From assembly GCA_964385605.1 (NCBI GenBank), contig CAYLPQ010000005.1:1-58057 (forward strand): 58,057 nt of DNA, given 5' to 3'. Below, piece by piece: positions 753 to 53,977 of this stretch. Numbering within the stretch: position 1 is the stretch's first letter; each line of letters begins with the position of its first letter. The DNA comes from an uncultured Oscillospiraceae bacterium (GTDB taxonomy: Bacteria; Bacillota; Clostridia; UMGS1883). The translations under genes were made by a program, and so were the position numbers. A model generated the notes under the pieces. The model was not told the origin of the DNA, searched no databases, and saw only the letters and a program-made list of their open reading frames with translations.

Positions 753-1580
753 TTAATTAGAGCCTGCTACAATTTCAGTGATTTCCTGCGTTATTGCCGC
801 CTGTCTTGCGCGGTTATACTTCAGACTGAGTTCTTCAATGATTTCACCTGCGTTATCTGTAGCTGCTTCCATTGCTGTGCGGCGTGCACTTAATTCTGAT
901 GCAAGAGATTCGCAAAGACCGCCGTAAACAATGCCGCCTATATAATGGGGTACAATTTTTGAAAATACCGCTTGAGGCGAAGGGTCATATATGATAAGGC
1001 TGTTTTTTGAAGAATTACCTTCTCCGGGGGCAATAGGCAGTATATCCCTGGAACCGGGAATCTGTGTCAGGGCATTTACAAAGCTAGTATAGTAAATCTT
1101 GATAGAGGAAAACTCCTCTCTTAAAAATGCCTCGCAAAGAGCCTGACCGATACTGTTGCAGTCTGAAATTCCCACATCGGCGGCAACTTCATATTCTGTG
1201 GTCAAGAATGTAACATCCTTTTTGCCAAAGTAGTCTACAACCTTTTTTCCTATCGGGAAGATAATGTCCCCGTCGTTATAGGAAACAGATTTAAAAAGAT
1301 TGTTGTTGTACCCGCCGGCAAGACCTCTGTCGCCGGCAATTACAATATGACAAGTCTTGTCACTTTTGTTTGAAGATATAAAAGGCGATGAAAAATCCTT
1401 ATTGGATGAAGCTATATCTGAAAGCGCCTCGGAAAGAGTTTCGAAGAAGGGTCTGCTTTTCTCAATTCTTTCCTTTGCCTTTTTCATCTTACTTGTTGCA
1501 ACAAGTTGCATTGCTTTAGTGATTTGTCTGGTGTTTTCTACGCTTTTTATTCGGTTTTTAATTGCTTTCATTGAAGGCAT
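753..1580 (-). CDS. atpG: F1 ATP synthase gamma subunit
   Basis: N-terminus MPSMKAIKNRIKSVENTRQITKAMQLVATSKM and C-terminus NRARQAAITQEITEIV are typical of gamma. The gene sits between atpA and atpD. Confidence 0.95.
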   Translation of the reverse strand: MPSMKAIKNRIKSVENTRQITKAMQLVATSKMKKAKERIEKSRPFFETLSEALSDIASSNKDFSSPFISSNKSDKTCHIVIAGDRGLAGGYNNNLFKSVSYNDGDIIFPIGKKVVDYFGKKDVTFLTTEYEVAADVGISDCNSIGQALCEAFLREEFSSIKIYYTSFVNALTQIPGSRDILPIAPGEGNSSKNSLIIYDPSPQAVFSKIVPHYIGGIVYGGLCESLASELSARRTAMEAATDNAGEIIEELSLKYNRARQAAITQEITEIVAGSN

Positions 1581-1591
1581 AGCGCTTCACC

Positions 1592-3106
1592 TCACTTAGT
1601 GCTGAGAAATTTATCACAGCATTCGGCAATTGCTGTTTTGAGAAGAGTCTCCACTTCTTCGGAAAGAATACCGGTCTCTCTGATTGATTCACCGATTTTG
1701 GGATAAGTGCTGTCTGTGTAATCGAACAGAGCACTCTCAAATGCTGAAACATCGCTAACGGCAATGTCCTTAAGATAGTCGTTGATAACCGCATAAATTA
1801 TCATAACTTGATGCTCTACCGAAACGGGAGCATTTCTATCCTGTTTGAGAACTTCCACGATACGGGCACCCTGGTCAAGACGCATTTTTGTATCTGCGTC
1901 AAGGTCGCTGCCAAACTGTGCGAATGATTGAAGCTCGCGGTACTGTGAATAGAGAAGCTTAAGAGTACCTGCCACCTTTTTCATAGCCTTAATCTGTGCG
2001 TTACCGCCAACACGGCTTACAGATATACCGGGGTTAACAGCAGGCATTACACCTGAATGGAAAAGCTCTGTTTCAAGGAATATCTGACCATCGGTAATTG
2101 AAATTACGTTGGTGGGAATGTATGCTGATACGTCACCTGCCTGTGTTTCAATAATGGGAAGTGCTGTAAGCGAGCCTCCACCGTATTCCGGAGCAAGACG
2201 TGCCGCTCTTTCAAGAAGTCTTGAATGCAGGTAGAATACATCACCGGGGTAAGCTTCACGTCCCGGGGGACGGCGGATAAGAAGGGAAAGAGCACGGTAT
2301 GCAACCGCGTGCTTTGAAAGGTCATCGTAAATAACCAGTACATCCTTACCCTGATACATAAAATATTCACCGATAGCACAACCGGAGTAGGGAGCAATGT
2401 ACTGCATGGGAGCAAGCTCACTTGCAGTTGCGGCAACAACAGTTGTATAATCCATAGCACCGGTTTTTTCGAGCATATCAACAAGCTGTGCAACGGTTGA
2501 CTTTTTCTGACCGATTGCAACGTAAATGCAGATTACGTCTTTTCCGCGCTGATTGATAATTGTATCGATACCTATAGTTGATTTACCCGTCTGACGGTCG
2601 CCGATAATAAGCTCGCGCTGACCGCGGCCGATGGGAATCATAGAGTCAATGGCCTTTATACCGGTCTGCAGGGGAACACTCACGGATTTTCTTTCAATAA
2701 TTCCGGGAGCGGCAGACTCAATGGGACGCACTTGTGATGTCTTGATGTCGCCCTTTCCGTCGATAGGCTGACCGAGAGCATTTACAACTCTGCCGATTAA
2801 TTCCTCGCCAACGGGCACACTTACAACATTGCCTGTGCGTTTAACAATATCGCCCTCGCGGATTTCACTGTCAGAGCCGAGAATAACAAGGCTTACAAGA
2901 TTTTCTTCAAGGTTAAGTGCCATTGCAACTTCACCGTTTGAGAACTCTACAAGCTCATTACTCATACAGTTATCAAGACCTTTTACCTTTGCAATACCGT
3001 CACCAACCTCAACAACGTAGCCGGTTTCCTTCTGCTCTGTTTTATTTGAATAATTCTTAATCTGATCTTTTATGATTTTGCTTATTTCGTCTGATTTGAG
3101 CTGCAT
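1592..3106 (-). CDS. atpA: F1 ATP synthase alpha subunit
   Basis: 504 aa with Walker [10 protein letters not shown] and conserved alpha-subunit blocks. Operon position fits. Confidence 0.97.
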
Positions 3107-3118
3107 TGTTTCACCTCA

Positions 3119-3649
3119 TTAATTATCGCAGATCTGCGCTCTGATAGCATCAAGCCGTGAACGTACACTTGCATCAGTCTGCGAATTTTCTGTTCTTATA
3201 ACTATACCGCCCAGAATTTTTTTATCAACTCTGTATTCGGGAACAATTGTCTTTGAATATTCCTTTTCAAGCTTGGAAACAAGCTTTTCTTTAAGGGCAT
3301 CACTCAAAGGAACTGCCGTTATGACGGTAATTTTTTCGATATTATTAACTTTGTTATATAATTTTTCATACTGCTTCACGCAGTCGGAAAAAGTGTGAGT
3401 ACACTTCTTCTCACACAGAAGCTTGATGAAGTTAAGGACGTATTCCTCTGCTCCCGAAAAAGCCTTGTCAATAAGACCAAGCCTTTCCTCAAGGGGAAGA
3501 GTGGGAGTGTCAAGAAGCTTGGGATAATCTTTGTTTTCTGCAAGGATAGCGCCGACTTCCTTTAATTCCTCCATAATGGAATCCGTCTTGTTTTCATCCT
3601 GTGCAAGTGAAAAAAGCGATGCGGCATATACCGAAGAAAATGAACTCAT
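3119..3649 (-). CDS. atpH: ATP synthase delta (OSCP) subunit
   Basis: 176 aa, located between atpF and atpA. Its stop/start overlaps atpF. Confidence 0.85.
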   Translation of the reverse strand: MSSFSSVYAASLFSLAQDENKTDSIMEELKEVGAILAENKDYPKLLDTPTLPLEERLGLIDKAFSGAEEYVLNFIKLLCEKKCTHTFSDCVKQYEKLYNKVNNIEKITVITAVPLSDALKEKLVSKLEKEYSKTIVPEYRVDKKILGGIVIRTENSQTDASVRSRLDAIRAQICDN

Positions 3650-4152
3650 CTTTTCTCACCCCAGTTGTCTATAAATTCTTCAACAAGTTTCTCATGATCT
3701 TTTTCGTTAATATCTTTTTCAATAACTTTTTCGGCAACACCAACAGCTATTGAAGCTATGTCGTTTCTGATTTCCTTAACAGCAGCCTGCTTTTCAAGCT
3801 CAATTTCTTTTTCAGCCTTGCTGATTACTGCAGCAGCTTTTTCCTGCGCTTCAGAAACAATCTTTTCTCCCTTGATTGTAGCATCTTTTGTAGCTTCTTT
3901 TACTATTCTTGCCGCTTCTTCTTTTGCTCCTGAAAGGCTTTCTGTATATTCCTTCTCAAGAACTTCGGCATTTTTTTGTGCCGCCTCGGCCTTTTCATAC
4001 ATAGAATTGACTTCATCTTCGCGCTGTTTAAGCATTTTTGTAACAGGCTTGAATAACAGCTTTTTCATTATGAAAACAAGAATAATCAAGTTAATCCATG
4101 TGAAAATAATTGTCCATGGAGCGATAGAGACGAACTCCTGAAATTTTTCCAT
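3646..4152 (-). CDS. atpF: ATP synthase F0 b subunit
   Basis: One N-terminal TM helix followed by a long charged Ala/Glu/Lys-rich helix. Operon position fits. Confidence 0.85.
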   Translation of the reverse strand: MEKFQEFVSIAPWTIIFTWINLIILVFIMKKLLFKPVTKMLKQREDEVNSMYEKAEAAQKNAEVLEKEYTESLSGAKEEAARIVKEATKDATIKGEKIVSEAQEKAAAVISKAEKEIELEKQAAVKEIRNDIASIAVGVAEKVIEKDINEKDHEKLVEEFIDNWGEKR

Positions 4153-4218
4153 TTCAAAACCTCCTCATTTTATCATGGGGCGTAAAAATGTCTTTTACAC
4201 CCCTTAAAGAATACAAAT

Positions 4219-5232
<1,014 letters not shown>

Positions 5233-5236
<4 letters not shown>

Positions 5237-5631
5237 GAAATTTCACTTCCTTTATGTCTTTGCGAGTTTATAAAACCTACGATGTGTATGGCAATCCTCT
5301 GGAAAAGAATAGGTATAACAGCCGCCCAAAAATGAATAATGTCAATTTTCGCTGCAATAATTATCATTACAGCAGTAAGAATTAAGCGGGAATTATAGCT
5401 CAATGCCATATGTGCTTTTGCACCATTCTCACCTTTTTTAATACTCTTTTTTACGGAATAAGCTAAGTAAAAGAAATTCAGTGAAGTAAATGTGCATCCA
5501 TACAGTACACCTATTAATATGTCAATCCGAAAAGATAAGCCCACCAGAAAAACAATAAATTCCATAAGTCCAAATAAAAAGACTACACCGGTGAATTTTG
5601 CCGCTTCTATATAAACAGAATTATCTTTCAT
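5233..5631 (-). CDS. atpI: ATP synthase protein I (AtpI-like small membrane protein)
   Basis: Start trimmed to MKDNSVYIEAAKF at 5631, preceded by AAGGAG. About 130 aa and hydrophobic, immediately upstream of atpB. Confidence 0.6.
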
Positions 5632-5854
5632 CCTCTTTCTCCTTTCCGGATAACTTTTGTATATATTTGATAAATGACAATATGGCACTTCCAGCTCCGA
5701 GAATTATACCTGCGACCATAATTCCGTTCCCAAGGGAAAATATGCTACGAATCCATGATGTAATAAATATCCATAACAGGAAGGAAATAACTACATTAAG
5801 ACCAAGTTGTGATATATTTCCCAGGGCTTCAAATATTTCTTTATGTTTTTTCAT
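5621..5854 (-). CDS. AtpZ/AtpI-family small membrane protein
   Basis: 77 aa with two TM helices, as the first gene of the atp operon. This is the usual position of AtpZ in Firmicutes. Confidence 0.55.
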   Translation of the reverse strand: MKKHKEIFEALGNISQLGLNVVISFLLWIFITSWIRSIFSLGNGIMVAGIILGAGSAILSFIKYIQKLSGKEKEDER

Positions 5855-40260: not shown

Positions 40261-40694
40261 AAATTTTTATAGATGCAGATGGTTGTCCCGTAGTGAATGA
40301 AACAATTTCTCTATGCGGTGAATTTGACAGGGAATGTATCATAATCTGTGACACAGCACATCAGATTGAGCGCGATGGTGCAACTACAATTACTGTGGAA
40401 AAAGGTGCTGACAGTGCCGATTTCCGTCTTGTAAATATGCTCTCAAAGGGCGACGTTGCGGTAACACAGGACTATGCTCTTGCCGCAATGGGGCTTTCAA
40501 GAGGAGCAAGAATAGTAAATCAGAACGGGCTTGAGTATACAGACAAAAATATCGACTCACTTCTGATGCAACGGTTTGTTGCAAAAAAAGTCAGAAATGC
40601 AGGCGGACGGCTTAAAGGGCCAAGTAAACGAACAAAAGAACAAACCGAAGCTTTTGTAAGAACACTTCGCAGAATACTGGAGGAATCAATATGA
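40257..40694 (+). CDS. YaiI/YqxD family protein (UPF0178)
   Basis: MKIFIDADGCPV start and about 145 aa are typical of the family. Confidence 0.8.
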   Translation: MKIFIDADGCPVVNETISLCGEFDRECIIICDTAHQIERDGATTITVEKGADSADFRLVNMLSKGDVAVTQDYALAAMGLSRGARIVNQNGLEYTDKNIDSLLMQRFVAKKVRNAGGRLKGPSKRTKEQTEAFVRTLRRILEESI

Positions 40695-41272
40695 AAATTA
40701 TTGCCGCTACAAAAAACAAGAATAAACTCCGTGAATTCGGAGAAATATTAAAGGACTTTGAGATTATTAGTCAGGAAGAAGCCGGCATAGATATAGACGT
40801 AGAGGAAACCGGCACAACATTTGAGGAAAATTCTCTCCTTAAAGCACAGGAAATCTATGAAAAGTCGGGCATACCTGCCATCGCAGACGACAGCGGACTT
40901 TGTGTGGATGCTCTCGGAGGTGAGCCGGGTGTATACAGTGCCCGTTACGGTGGTGAAGGACTTGATGATACGGGAAGAGTAGAGCTTCTTTTAAGGAATA
41001 TGAAAGATGTTCCCGACGAAAAGAGAACAGCCCGTTTCATATGTGCCATAACTATGGTAAGTGACGGCGGTATTGTTACCGCCCGTGGTGAGTGCGAGGG
41101 CACAATAAATTATGCACCTGTCGGAGAAAACGGCTTTGGCTATGACCCTGTATTTTATATGAAGGAATATGACAAAACTACAGCACAGATGTCCCCCGAT
41201 GAAAAAAATGCAGTCAGTCACAGAGGTAAAGCACTTCGTGAATTTGCAAAAATAATAGCGGAGCGGAAATAA
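40691..41272 (+). CDS. rdgB: Non-canonical purine NTP pyrophosphatase (XTP/dITP diphosphatase, RdgB/HAM1)
   Basis: IIAATKNKNKLREF, ADDSGLCVDALGGEPGVYSARY and GFGYDPVF blocks. Confidence 0.9.
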   Translation: MKIIAATKNKNKLREFGEILKDFEIISQEEAGIDIDVEETGTTFEENSLLKAQEIYEKSGIPAIADDSGLCVDALGGEPGVYSARYGGEGLDDTGRVELLLRNMKDVPDEKRTARFICAITMVSDGGIVTARGECEGTINYAPVGENGFGYDPVFYMKEYDKTTAQMSPDEKNAVSHRGKALREFAKIIAERK

Positions 41273-48564: not shown

Positions 48565-48635
48565 CCAAATTTACTCTTTACCCAAAATCTCTTTTATGGT
48601 AGAATAAATATATTGAAACTTAAAGGGTGAGAAAA

Positions 48636-49682
48636 ATGAAAAGACGCAAATCAAGAGAAATAACTGTTGGAAATGTAAAAATAGGCGGTGGTGCCGGAAT
48701 TTCGGTGCAATCCATGTGTAATACAGACACAAAAGATGTAGCGGCAACTGTCAGTCAGATCAATGAGCTTCAGGCAGCGGGCTGTGATATTGTCCGCCTT
48801 GCTGTGCTTGATATGGATGCTGCAAAAGCTTTTGGTGAAATCAAAAAGCAGGTGTCAGTTCCTTTGGTTGCTGATATTCATTTTGATTATCGGCTCGCAA
48901 TTGAATGTGCAAAAGGCGGAGCCGATAAAATCCGTATTAATCCCGGCAATATCGGCTTGCCCGACAGAGTAAAAGCAGTTGCAGATGAGTGCGGAAACCG
49001 TAATATTCCTATAAGAATAGGAGTAAATGGCGGTTCTCTTGAAAAAGAGCTTCTTCAGAAATACGGCTCACCTACCGCTGATGCTCTTTGTGAAAGTGCT
49101 CTCGGACATATAAAAATGCTTGAAGATTGTGGGTTTTACGATATTGCTCTTTCTCTTAAATCCAGTAATATACAGACAATGTTTGAAGCTTACGGCAAAA
49201 TTGCAGATATGATTGACTACCCTTTGCACATTGGAGTTACAGAAGCCGGTACTGAATATGGCGGAATTGTTAAGAACAGCATTGGCATAGGTGCGCTTCT
49301 CCTTAACGGTATAGGCGATACTCTGCGCGTGTCACTTACTGCGCCGCCTGTCAGAGAGGTAACAGCAGGAATAGAAATACTGAAATCACTGGGGATGAGA
49401 GACGGCGCAAAGCTTGTAAGCTGTCCTACCTGCGGAAGATGCAGAGTGGATATGATTCCCGTTGCGGATGAAGTGAACAGGCGACTTGCGTCTGTTGACA
49501 AAAACATTACCGTTGCAGTAATGGGCTGTGCGGTAAACGGACCTGGAGAAGCCAGAGAAGCTGATATAGGTATGGCTTGCGGAATCGGGGAGGCACTTCT
49601 TTTCAAAAAAGGAGAAAAGCTTCGCAAGGTTCCCATTGAAAATGCTACAGATGAATTATTCAGAGAAATAGAGGATATATGA
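48636..49682 (+). CDS. ispG: 4-hydroxy-3-methylbut-2-enyl diphosphate synthase (MEP pathway)
   Basis: REITVGNVKIGGGAGISVQSMCNTDT, the C-terminal Cys cluster CPTCGRC, and GCAVNGPGEA. Confidence 0.95.
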   Translation: MKRRKSREITVGNVKIGGGAGISVQSMCNTDTKDVAATVSQINELQAAGCDIVRLAVLDMDAAKAFGEIKKQVSVPLVADIHFDYRLAIECAKGGADKIRINPGNIGLPDRVKAVADECGNRNIPIRIGVNGGSLEKELLQKYGSPTADALCESALGHIKMLEDCGFYDIALSLKSSNIQTMFEAYGKIADMIDYPLHIGVTEAGTEYGGIVKNSIGIGALLLNGIGDTLRVSLTAPPVREVTAGIEILKSLGMRDGAKLVSCPTCGRCRVDMIPVADEVNRRLASVDKNITVAVMGCAVNGPGEAREADIGMACGIGEALLFKKGEKLRKVPIENATDELFREIEDI

Positions 49683-52600
49683 TGGAGAACTACACGTTAA
49701 AAAATACATTTCCAAATGCATATTGTCCTGATGAGTTGTGTGATGCTACCGTAACAAAAATCAGCGCCGATGCAAACAAACGCATTATATCGGCTGATGT
49801 TTCGCTTGAAACGGTTATAAGCAGTGAAGCTATAGATAAATTCCGTGATTCTGTAAAAACTGCATATGGCCTTGAACGATTCGACCTTAATGTGGTTTTT
49901 GATGTGAAAGACACAGATATTTGTGAGTGTACAAAGTTCTGTATTGAAAAAATAGGGAATGAAGAGCCGCTTTATAAAGCGATTTTCGACTGTTGCTTTG
50001 TGAATGAATGTGAAAACAAGGTGAAAATCACTCTCCGACACGGAAATGAGGAGCTTCTCGAGGAAAACAGTATAGATAAAAAAATATCCGAGACATTACG
50101 GAAAACATTTGATATAGAGGAAGAAGTAATATTTGACTGTGACGAAATGGTTGTGGAAACAAAGCTTGAACCTGTATGTGCTCCCAAAGCACCGTCCGCA
50201 CCGAAGAAAATAGTATCTGTTGCGGCAGAGGGTGCGCTGATAGGAAAACCTTTTACGGCGAATGACCTTACAGACATCAAGGATATTGATAACTATTCCG
50301 GAAGCTGTATGATTTATGGCGATGTATTCGGAATTGACTGTAAGGAAATACCGAAAATCAAAAAAACTATTGTTTCTTTTTACATAACCGACTACACAGG
50401 CTCGCTCACAGTGAAATGCTTTGTGCCTATAGCCGCTACAGATGAGGTTAAGGATGCCCTTAAAAAGACTGGAACGGTGGCTGTCCGCGGAAAAGCAGAA
50501 ATGGATAGCTTCTCTCACGAGCTTACCGTTATGGCGAGGGATATTATACCGTATTCGATGCCGAAAGAAAAAGACGATGCAGAAATTAAGAGAGTCGAGC
50601 TTCATGCTCATACAAAATCGTCTGCAATGGATGCCGTTGTTAGTGCAAAGGACCTTGTAAAGCAGGCGATGAAGTATGGACACAGTGCAATTGCCATAAC
50701 CGACCACGGATGTGTGCAGGCTTTTCCTGAAGCATTCCATACTGCTGATGAAACCATAAAAATCCTTTATGGTTGCGAGGGGTATCTTATTGAGGCAGGT
50801 GCCCCCCTTGCGCGTGACACCAAGAGGTACCATATAATTATTTTTGCACAGAATCTTACAGGACTTAAAAATCTGTATAAGCTCATCAGTGCGTCGAATC
50901 TTGAACATTTCTATCGTCGTCCGCTTATTCCACGTGATGTCCTTGATGCGCATCGGGAGGGTCTTATCCTTGGCTCGGCTTGTGAGGCAGGCGAGCTTTT
51001 CCGCGCTGTTCTTGACGGAGCAGATGATGAAAAATTGGAAAAAATTGCTTCATATTATGATTATCTTGAAGTACAGCCGATTGGAAACAATGATTACCTT
51101 GTCCGTAATGGTACGGTGGCTGACCGCAAGGGGCTTTGTGACCTTAACCGTAAAATAATTGACCTTGCTGACAGAATGGGTAAGCTTGTTGTTGCAACAG
51201 GCGACGTTCATTTCCTCAGGAAACGTGATGAAATTTTCAGAAGAATACTTCAGGCGGGTCAGGGCTTTCAGGATGCGGATATGCAGGCGCCCCTTTATTT
51301 CAGAACCACACAGGAAATGCTTGATGAATTCAGCTATCTTTCCCCTGAAAAGGCTTATGAGATAGTAGTTACAAACACAAATAAAATTGCAGATATGATA
51401 GAAAATATCCGTCCCGTTCCCAAGGGAAACTTTCCCCCGAAAATTGACGGAAGTGCCGAGGATATAGAACGCATTGCCCGTGAAACGGCGGAAAGTCTTT
51501 ACGGAGACCCTCTTCCACAGGAGGTGGAGGACAGGCTTCAGCGGGAACTCAAAAGTGTTATCGGTAACGGTTATGCGGATTTGTACAATATTGCACGACT
51601 TCTTGTTAAACACTCCCGTGAGGAGGGGTATGTTGTTGGTTCGCGTGGTAGTGTAGGATCTTCTTTCCTTGCGTATTGTGCGCAGATTACAGAGGTTAAC
51701 AGCTTGCCGCCTCATTACCGCTGTCCAAAGTGCAAGCATACAGTGTTCATATATGATGAGCAGTATGACTCCGGTCACGATATGCCGGATGCCAATTGTC
51801 CGAAGTGTGGAACCGCGTATGTAAAAGACGGACATAACATTCCCTTTGAAACGTTCCTTGGCTTTAAAGGTGACAAACAGCCCGACATCGACCTTAACTT
51901 TTCCGGCGAAAATCAAGCGAGTGCACATAAATATACGGAGGAAATTTTCGGTGAAGGTTACGTTTTCCGTGCAGGAACGGTGAGTACCGTCGCAGAAAAA
52001 ACGGCATACGGATATGTTCGTAAATATTTTGAACAAAAGGGTATCAATGTCCACAATGCCGAAATTGAGAGGCTTAAGCAGGGAGTAATGAACGTTAAAA
52101 CCACCACAGGACAGCACCCCGGCGGTGTTATCGTTCTGCCCAAAGGTCACGATATTCATGAATTTACTCCTATTCAGCATCCTGCAGAGAAAGCAGAAAG
52201 TGGTATTATAACCACTCACTTTGACTATCACAGTATTGATGAAAACCTCTTAAAGCTTGATATTCTCGGTCATGATGACCCTACAATGATAAGGATGCTT
52301 CAGGACCTTACAGGGGTAGACCCTACACAGGTGCCTCTGGATGATAAGGCTGTAATGAGCCTGTTCCTTAATACAGATGCTCTTGGAGTAACTCCCGAGG
52401 ATATAGGAAGTGAAACGGGAACCTTTGCCGTGCCGGAATTTGGTACAAAATTTGTACGACAGATGCTTGTAGATACTAAACCGACCTCACTCGGTGAGCT
52501 TATTCGTATTTCGGGACTTTCTCACGGTACAGATGTGTGGACAAACAATGCACAGCTCCTTGTTCAGAACGGAACGTGTACACTGCGTAATGCTATCTGT

Positions 52601-53302
52601 TGCCGTGACGATATTATGATTTATCTTATAAACAGAGAACTTCCGCCGGAGCGCGCATTCAAAATTATGGAGCAGGTCAGAAAGGGTAAAAAGCTTAAAC
52701 CCGAGGATGAAGCAGAAATGCGAGAACATAATGTTCCCGAATGGTATATTGAATCCTGTAACAAAATTCAGTATATGTTCCCCCGAGCTCATGCGGCGGC
52801 ATATGTTACAATGTCGCTCCGGGTGGCATATTTCAAAGTTCATTATCCCGTCGCATTCTATCAGTCATATTATACGGTGCGTGCTGACACCTTTGATTAT
52901 GAGACTATGGCAACGGGCAGAGAAAATCTTCTTGTTAAAATGCGGGACCTTCAGCAAATGGAAAATCCGTCTGCCCGTGACAAGGCAACTCTTACAATTA
53001 TGGAAGTTGTAAATGAGATGTATGCAAGAGGAATAGAGTTTTTACCTATAGACATATATATGTCCCATCCGACGAAGTATCTTAACATAGGTGGAAAAAT
53101 TCTTCCGGCACTGAACAGCATAGCTGGTCTTGGCGATAAAGCGGCACAGTCTATTGCCGACGCAAGGGAAAACGGACGGTTTTTCTCCATCGATGACTTC
53201 AAGCAACGTACAAGTGTCAGTGAAACTCATATCGAGCTCTTCAAAAGCTTCGGTTGCTTTAAAGGTATTCCCCAAAGTGCCCAGGTAAGCCTGTTTGATT
53301 AA
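49679..53302 (+). CDS. polC: PolC-type DNA polymerase III alpha subunit, short form (1207 aa) without the DEDD exonuclease insert
   Basis: PolC N-domain and OB fold, PHP motifs (VELHAHT, ITDHG), the PolC Zn-finger region (HYRCPKCKH...CPKCG), GSRGSVGSS, DIDLNFSG, HPGG, LKLDILGHDDPT and the C-terminal HhH region. Its start overlaps the ispG stop. Confidence 0.95.
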   Translation: MMENYTLKNTFPNAYCPDELCDATVTKISADANKRIISADVSLETVISSEAIDKFRDSVKTAYGLERFDLNVVFDVKDTDICECTKFCIEKIGNEEPLYKAIFDCCFVNECENKVKITLRHGNEELLEENSIDKKISETLRKTFDIEEEVIFDCDEMVVETKLEPVCAPKAPSAPKKIVSVAAEGALIGKPFTANDLTDIKDIDNYSGSCMIYGDVFGIDCKEIPKIKKTIVSFYITDYTGSLTVKCFVPIAATDEVKDALKKTGTVAVRGKAEMDSFSHELTVMARDIIPYSMPKEKDDAEIKRVELHAHTKSSAMDAVVSAKDLVKQAMKYGHSAIAITDHGCVQAFPEAFHTADETIKILYGCEGYLIEAGAPLARDTKRYHIIIFAQNLTGLKNLYKLISASNLEHFYRRPLIPRDVLDAHREGLILGSACEAGELFRAVLDGADDEKLEKIASYYDYLEVQPIGNNDYLVRNGTVADRKGLCDLNRKIIDLADRMGKLVVATGDVHFLRKRDEIFRRILQAGQGFQDADMQAPLYFRTTQEMLDEFSYLSPEKAYEIVVTNTNKIADMIENIRPVPKGNFPPKIDGSAEDIERIARETAESLYGDPLPQEVEDRLQRELKSVIGNGYADLYNIARLLVKHSREEGYVVGSRGSVGSSFLAYCAQITEVNSLPPHYRCPKCKHTVFIYDEQYDSGHDMPDANCPKCGTAYVKDGHNIPFETFLGFKGDKQPDIDLNFSGENQASAHKYTEEIFGEGYVFRAGTVSTVAEKTAYGYVRKYFEQKGINVHNAEIERLKQGVMNVKTTTGQHPGGVIVLPKGHDIHEFTPIQHPAEKAESGIITTHFDYHSIDENLLKLDILGHDDPTMIRMLQDLTGVDPTQVPLDDKAVMSLFLNTDALGVTPEDIGSETGTFAVPEFGTKFVRQMLVDTKPTSLGELIRISGLSHGTDVWTNNAQLLVQNGTCTLRNAICCRDDIMIYLINRELPPERAFKIMEQVRKGKKLKPEDEAEMREHNVPEWYIESCNKIQYMFPRAHAAAYVTMSLRVAYFKVHYPVAFYQSYYTVRADTFDYETMATGRENLLVKMRDLQQMENPSARDKATLTIMEVVNEMYARGIEFLPIDIYMSHPTKYLNIGGKILPALNSIAGLGDKAAQSIADARENGRFFSIDDFKQRTSVSETHIELFKSFGCFKGIPQSAQVSLFD

Positions 53303-53760: not shown

Positions 53761-53796
53761 AGCATCCGGAGTAAAATTTATTCCGAATGCTTTTTT
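53761..53796 (+). terminator. Rho-independent terminator after spoVM
   Basis: GCATCCGGA-gtaaaattta(t)-TCCGAATGC (one mismatch) followed by TTTTTT. Confidence 0.7.
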
Positions 53797-53797
53797 G

Positions 53798-53977
53798 ACG
53801 TAAAGGAATTTGCGCAATTAATACGCATGAAATTATGTCTGTACTGCGTGTGGGCGCGACATGGGTGCAGGCACAGCCTGCTTTTTTCCGTAAAGGAATT
53901 TGCGCAATTAATACGCGTGAAACTATGTTTGCACTGTGTATGGGCGCGACATGGGTGCAGGCACAGCCTGCTTTTTT
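53798..53977 (+). repeat. Tandem direct repeat, 2 x 90 bp, each unit ending in a hairpin plus T-run
   Basis: Unit 1 is 53798-53887 and unit 2 is 53888-53977. Six substitutions between units, all transitions. Each unit contains TTGCGCAA and ends GCAGGC-aca-GCCTGC TTTTTT. Confidence 0.9.

Follow-up and report, generated by a model that had tools for sequence, protein, structure and literature searches.

We report here that the PolC-type DNA polymerase III alpha subunit encoded in a 58,057-nt stretch of DNA from an uncultured Oscillospiraceae bacterium (contig CAYLPQ010000005.1 of assembly GCA_964385605.1, hereafter the window) is devoid of the DnaQ-like DEDDh exonuclease that is a hallmark of PolC, the essential replicase of Firmicutes and a drug target. 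Every other module of the enzyme is intact, namely the N-terminal region, the OB fold, the PHP domain, the palm, thumb and fingers, the zinc module, the helix-hairpin-helix (HhH) domain and the clamp-binding motif, and the deletion of the exonuclease (exo) is real and lineage-wide. We consider it probable that an uncultured lineage of gut Clostridia relies on this protein as its resident, functional replicative PolC. Its architecture is not new. The window PolC joins the class of exo-less PolCs described in 2014 (Timinskas & Venclovas, NAR 2014, PMC3919608), with which it shares the arrangement N-terminal domain (NTD)+OB+PHP+Pol3+HhH without Exo and a host among the Clostridia. A preliminary description of this DNA, made from the sequence, had the architecture right but missed that it was already published (PMC3919608).

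The missing exonuclease insert and the PHP metal site

The polC open reading frame (ORF) occupies 49679..53302 on the forward strand, which is also the strand of all the features of this protein given below, and encodes 1207 aa in a frame that is open throughout. RNase_T (PF00929) was not found by Pfam in the window PolC, even at E<=1. The NCBIfam profile NF001688 aligns in two stretches, the second of which pairs residues 381-1207 with profile positions 612-1445, so that ~200 profile positions are skipped. When the window PolC is aligned with its nearest exo-containing relatives, ~195 aa are missing between L377 and A378 (~nt 50810), where these relatives carry the motifs of Exo I (FDIETTG), Exo II (HNAxFD) and Exo III (HHRAxxDA). 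A 12-residue loop, E372-R383 (EAGAPLARDTKR, 50792..50827), stands in place of the canonical DnaQ-like insert, as seen in the alignments, in the linker of the 3f2b structure and in an AlphaFold2 (AF2) model where it joins two strands with a predicted local distance difference test (pLDDT) score of ~90. We also built an exo-domain hidden Markov model (HMM) from 15 close PolC exo domains of exo-containing relatives, which is for that reason insensitive to distant DnaQ families. It gave no match in the six-frame ORFs of the window (>=50 aa), nor in the 10 kb around polC in those of the 80 related loci that are exo-less, and a cryptic or frame-shifted exo remnant in the window was rejected on the basis of this search.

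The preliminary description had drawn attention to positions 50593-50860, which correspond to residues 305-394 (RVELHAHT...YHIIIFAQNLT), and had claimed that no DEDD exonuclease insert is present there, the PHP segments being joined at about residue 370. The motifs that it quoted are all as written, the junction was accurately placed, and the absence of the insert is borne out by Pfam, by the exo HMM and by the ~195-aa gap at the exo site. The search for an exonuclease profile inside the ORF, which it had put forward as a way to refute the claim, returned no match.

The PHP domain (residues ~303-560, 50585..51358; Pfam PHP, 5.6e-32) is uninterrupted and carries nine metal ligands, H309, H311, D318, H343, E367, H385, C435, D509 and H511, which together form the motif HHDHEHCDH. 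In alignments, these residues fall on the positions of the ligands in Geobacillus PolC (3f2b) and in Thermus aquaticus DnaE (2hpi), and the motif matches the 'active' PHP signature, HHDHEH[C/H]DH (PMC12926913). D509 is retained in the window PolC, whereas an N is found at this position in Geobacillus PolC and in the 9qpc PolC; similarly, the Taq 3e0d construct has a D-to-N change at both Asp positions, where the window has D. All the exo-less loci have this motif without change, and so do 104 of 105 exo-less database proteins; the remaining one is a truncated fragment. The occupancy of the PHP metal-ligand positions, which the preliminary description had read from the sequence, is confirmed by the alignment to solved structures and by an OB+PHP fold that matches 3f2b.

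The other modules follow the order of PolC, with an N-terminal region, an OB fold ahead of PHP, the Pol3 core and two HhH motifs, and with no DnaE-type C-terminal OB or C-terminal domain. The N-terminal region (residues ~1-195, 49679..50263) aligns with the N-termini of exo-containing PolCs and has a weak Pfam match to DNA_pol3_a_NI (E=0.026). The OB fold (residues 214-290, 50318..50548) is matched by Pfam tRNA_anti-codon at 3.2e-5, under the curated cut-off, and is modelled by AF2 as a beta-barrel with pLDDT >90. It is followed by PHP (Pfam match at residues 307-460), by the palm, thumb and fingers of the polymerase core (51464..52978; Pfam DNA_pol3_alpha, 2.4e-54; finger, 2.8e-24) and by the tandem HhH domain (53030..53272; Pfam HHH_6, 4.9e-13). 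The catalytic aspartates, assigned from motif positions, are D736, D738 and D861, the first two being conserved across all related loci in our alignment, and a four-Cys zinc module is formed by CPKC 682-685 and CPKC 707-710. Finally, the beta-clamp-binding motif QVSLF lies at the C-terminal end (residues 1202-1206, 53282..53296); its terminal Q-x-x-[LIMF]-F pattern is kept in relatives, and the published consensus is QL[S/D]LF (PMC3919608). The protein passes the NCBIfam equivalog cut-offs for PolC (NF001688, 1491.8 bits vs 873; TIGR01405, 1387.1 vs 1043), and its best sequence match in the PDB is Geobacillus PolC (3f2b, 1135 bits). The AF2 model, which covers residues 199-654 (OB, PHP and the start of the palm) with a mean pLDDT of 88.8, has 3f2b as the best structural match of its OB+PHP part (E=1e-44).

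Canonical PolCs of ~1430 aa, such as those of B. subtilis, S. aureus and C. difficile, harbour within PHP the DEDDh exonuclease that is absent from the window PolC, and share with it the NCBIfam equivalogs, the domain order, the catalytic, zinc and clamp motifs and, within Clostridia, the ispG-polC locus. A likeness of another kind is provided by the Geobacillus kaustophilus PolC construct (3F2B/3F2C/3F2D), in which exo was removed and replaced by a GSGSG linker that aligns with the natural loop of the window. While the window form is natural, this construct is a product of engineering, an exo domain being present in the native Geobacillus enzyme; both Exo and NTD are missing from the structure (figure legend, PMC3919608). 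Geobacillus also differs by being a PolC+DnaE3 organism and by its PHP sequence TGNVHY, with N for the D of D-x-H, where the window has TGDVHF.

Distribution and genomic context of exo-less polC genes

The junction found in the window recurs widely. In the protein database we identified 104 exo-less homologues with 58-95% identity and a full PHP motif, which come from ENA, NCBI, JGI and Logan assemblies, and the same junction was found in ~45 GTDB species-representative genomes. These ~45 genomes are metagenome-assembled genomes (MAGs) titled Clostridia, Oscillospiraceae or Clostridiales, mainly from ruminant and human gut; the nearest ones, with 74-92% identity, are titled 'Clostridia bacterium' or 'Oscillospiraceae bacterium'. 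One relative with 86% identity sits on a 257-kb contig with the same neighbour genes. The conserved upstream neighbour of polC is ispG (GcpE; 48627..49682, forward strand; Pfam GcpE, 2.6e-146), which directly precedes polC in the window and in 62 of the 80 related loci, whether these contain exo or not. This synteny identifies the window gene as the resident polC locus and not an extra copy, and the alternative of an additional paralogue was therefore rejected. The ispG stop overlaps the polC start (ATGA, 49679-49682), which suggests translational coupling. A gene caller selected the second ATG of polC, giving a protein of 1206 aa (P0001).

The idea that the shortness of the ORF reflects an error of assembly or binning (a collapsed region) or else a decaying pseudogene can practically be set aside. 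The window is a single contig, as such an error would allow, but the same junction is present in dozens of independent assemblies from four sources, and this recurrence excludes the assembly collapse that the preliminary description had named as a possible refutation. Moreover, the 1207 codons are uninterrupted, the junction is modelled as a confident short loop, and the dN/dS ratio (nonsynonymous to synonymous substitution rates) of the window polC against L001, L002, L004 and L005 is 0.03-0.07, which shows strong purifying selection in a qualitative manner only, because dS is near saturation. For annotation purposes, the window polC is neither truncated nor a pseudogene.

In the 2014 survey, 6% of PolCs were without the Exo insertion, and these were confined to Clostridia and Negativicutes, save one extra copy in Thermotogae; both taxa pair PolC with DnaE1, and exo-less proteins make up 16% of the PolCs in PolC+DnaE1 systems (PMC3919608). 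Two Acidaminococcus PolCs, from A. fermentans DSM 20731 (YP_003399045.1, 1191 aa) and A. intestini (1210 aa), have the NTD+OB+PHP+Pol3+HhH architecture, the PHP motif HHDHEHCDH and the polymerase set PC+E1 (PMC3919608 supplement). They resemble the window PolC in this architecture without Exo, in their length of ~1200 aa, in their PHP motif and in belonging to the same broad taxon, Firmicutes with PolC+DnaE1; their clamp motif is QIELF vs QVSLF in the window. However, their lineage differs, Acidaminococcus being a member of the Negativicutes and the window coming from gut MAGs labelled Clostridia or Oscillospiraceae. The loss of exo in the window may be separate from that of Acidaminococcus, since our neighbour-joining tree suggests several independent losses. 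In this tree, the window falls in a large monophyletic exo-less clade that is sister to an exo-containing clade, and separate exo-less groups are formed by L040/L042/L043, by L049 and by L067/L079. This topology suggests that exo was lost independently at least 3-4 times, the window's clade being the largest.

One exo-less subclade (L027, L029-L033, L035, L039, L047 and L068) has a second tandem OB-fold of ~105 aa between the first OB and PHP. The same arrangement is found in proteins P0074-P0093, of ~1320 aa. A tandem OB in PolC was earlier noted only for two Lactococcus PolCs (PMC3919608).

Proofreading without the DnaQ-like insert

Clostridia usually possess three 'active' proofreaders, namely the PHP domains of both PolC and DnaE1 and, in PolC, the DnaQ domain (2026 survey from the same group, PMC12926913), and the proofreading of clostridial PolC+DnaE1 replisomes has never been studied by experiment (PMC3919608). 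The preliminary description had proposed that proofreading comes either from PHP or from a separate DnaQ-like protein; as a set of alternatives this interpretation holds, both being discussed in the literature. We favour, as the likelier explanation overall, proofreading in cis by the PHP site of PolC, possibly backed by DnaE1. The trinuclear-metal PHP site of PolC would itself proofread the products of PolC, in the role of the 'ancestral' proofreader of the C family, as known for Thermus and Mycobacterium DnaE1, and the PHP of a partner DnaE1 may assist. With such a redundancy of proofreaders, clostridial lineages could afford repeated loss or inactivation of the DnaQ-type insert. At all nine ligand positions, Thermus DnaE and M. 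tuberculosis DnaE1 have the same residue types as the window PolC; they are DnaE-type enzymes, whereas the window enzyme is of the PolC type and the activity of its PHP is predicted. For M. tuberculosis DnaE1, the PHP exonuclease is reportedly demonstrated by experiment, in work ascribed to Rock in 2015. For Thermus DnaE, it was shown experimentally (Stano 2006, cited in PMC12926913). A second C-family polymerase (DnaE) was not found in the 58-kb window or in the 80 related loci. Every bacterium has a DnaE-type subunit (PMC12926913). In the genome from which the window comes one would expect, by analogy, a DnaE1 partner that brings a PHP of its own.

We compared the state of the exo site with that of the PHP motif in the best 150 representatives of 50%-identity clusters, using residues 8-1207 as the query. 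The exo insert is absent from 30 representatives, 26 of which have an intact PHP motif. In 12 others the insert is present with the Exo I D-x-E lost or without an HMM match, and the PHP motif is intact in all 12. Among the ~98 representatives with an intact exonuclease (DEDHD), the PHP motif is intact in 55-59. PHP is kept when exo is gone and exo is kept when PHP is degraded, which fits a redundancy of the two proofreaders, and the comparison lends support to proofreading by the PHP site. The four exo-less representatives with an altered PHP motif are P0210 (1178 aa) and P0226, P0250 and P0253 (~850-900 aa); their motifs, for example HHDSERCNR and SHDHEHGDR, leave no proofreader evident. The short ones, which start at PHP, may be fragments, extra copies or mobile-element polymerases.

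Several observations weigh against proofreading by the PHP site of the window PolC. Our literature search found no biochemistry on exo-less PolC and no report of PolC PHP exonuclease activity. The PHP motif is equally intact in all the exo-containing clostridial relatives of the locus set, so that in the window it is no lineage-specific adaptation; the intact PHP site stressed in the preliminary description is present, but it is not special to the exo-less form. Conservation of PHP could also reflect a structural role (PMC3666897) or a role as pyrophosphatase (PMC4822814). While the PHP motif is kept more often in exo-lost or decayed PolCs than in exo-intact ones (Fisher p ~2e-4), this value ignores phylogeny and relies on motif calls from a fast MAFFT alignment.

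A separately encoded DnaQ-like exonuclease of the epsilon type could dock on PolC and proofread in trans, PHP being structural or otherwise used. In E. coli, epsilon docks on the PHP domain of DnaE. Standalone DnaQ homologues are common, averaging more than three per bacterial proteome (PMC12926913), which also counts against proofreading in cis, and a putative epsilon-binding surface is conserved on clostridial DnaE1 (PMC3919608). The persistence of the PHP motif in exo-containing relatives is compatible with this alternative as well, conservation alone being no proof of catalytic use. We nonetheless consider proofreading in trans unlikely: there is no RNase_T or DnaQ gene among the ~48 window genes scanned with Pfam, the searches with the exo HMM around polC in the window and in the exo-less loci were negative, and the PHP motif is kept far more often in PolCs without a working exo, which a dedicated trans exonuclease would not predict.

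It has also been suggested that such a PolC has no proofreading and fulfils a subsidiary or specialised task, the bulk of high-fidelity replication being carried out by a partner DnaE1 with an intact PHP. This possibility was raised by Timinskas & Venclovas, who noted that some Clostridia are DnaE1-only and that exo-less PolCs are all found in PolC+DnaE1 taxa (PMC3919608). For the window enzyme we regard it as quite improbable. The gene is strongly conserved, as seen from its dN/dS values and from 75-95% identity over many species, and the clamp motif, the zinc module, the catalytic residues and the canonical locus have all been kept. Moreover, the nine PHP ligands are invariant in more than 100 exo-less sequences. 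Such constancy would not be expected of an idle site, although it could also stem from a structural role. Compared with these two alternatives, proofreading by the PHP site of PolC itself, with possible help from DnaE1, remains the reading that we favour.

A broader proposal, which we advance tentatively and see as nearly evenly balanced, is that in clostridial PolC the PHP domain may be the primary proofreader and the DnaQ-type insert repeatedly dispensable. In public data the exo site is found as dead full-length inserts (L076, L078 and L080), as unrecognisable inserts (at least 10 representatives) and as clean deletions, and nearly all of these exo-dead, decayed or deleted states have an intact PHP site. 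If true, this proposal contradicts the generalisation that in Pol III alpha only the PHP proofreader, and never DnaQ, becomes inactivated, and the window enzyme would provide a minimal PolC of natural origin on which to test PHP proofreading. As a naturally exo-less, strongly conserved PolC of abundant gut and rumen Clostridia, it offers a convenient test case for the activity of this site. Taken by itself, the window adds another case of an architecture already in print; broader interest attaches to the recurrent decay and loss of exo with retention of PHP.

The dead inserts are found in three gut-MAG PolCs of ~1410 aa (L076:2919-7160, L078:9127-13353 and L080:1365-5600), which have a full-length RNase_T-like insert (PF00929, 51 bits in L078) and an intact PHP motif. 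Their DEDDh residues are substituted: FDIETT is changed to YTIRTT, YSLRAT or YSLRSS, HNAxFD to HNAxNT, and HHRAxxDA to E[LI]TDALKEA. From these substitutions, they look like counter-examples to the statement that the DnaQ proofreader is never inactivated (PMC12926913). The three genes are not adjacent to ispG and could, for this reason, be paralogues.

The unrecognisable inserts, of ~125-270 aa, occupy the exo site in P0132, P0138, P0139, P0144, P0181, P0184, P0185, P0202, P0218 and P0219, and also in P0230 and P0239. The Exo I D-x-E is missing from them and they do not match RNase_T significantly, Pfam giving only trace RNase_T/RNase_H matches (E=0.015 and 0.28) on such inserts, and the PHP motif is intact in all these proteins. 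P0219 has FVSIHIGTTG vs FVVFDIETTG in others. Judging by their position and size, these inserts are probably decayed exonuclease remnants.

Other features of the window

Downstream of polC, a 770-nt gap contains a tandem direct repeat of two 90-nt copies that are 91% identical (53792-53971). Each copy ends in a hairpin, GCAGGCACAGCCTGC, followed by a T run, and from these features the repeat looks like a terminator. It has no Rfam match, and nothing was found when the window was scanned against Rfam and for tRNAs.

Upstream, a gene for a Ham1/RdgB-type non-canonical NTP pyrophosphatase, an enzyme of dNTP-pool sanitation, is located at 40691-41272, 8 kb from polC, in an arrangement that is conserved in L081; it probably has no bearing on the loss of proofreading. 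A large cell-envelope polysaccharide cluster extends over 5858-38362, flanked by an F-type ATP synthase operon on the reverse strand (753-5688), and comprises genes for glycosyltransferases, a pyruvyl transferase, TupA-like ATP-grasp proteins, aminotransferases, enzymes of UDP-sugar metabolism and proteins resembling Wzy and Wzx. Finally, the sign of the GC skew flips near 10 kb, along with the coding strand.

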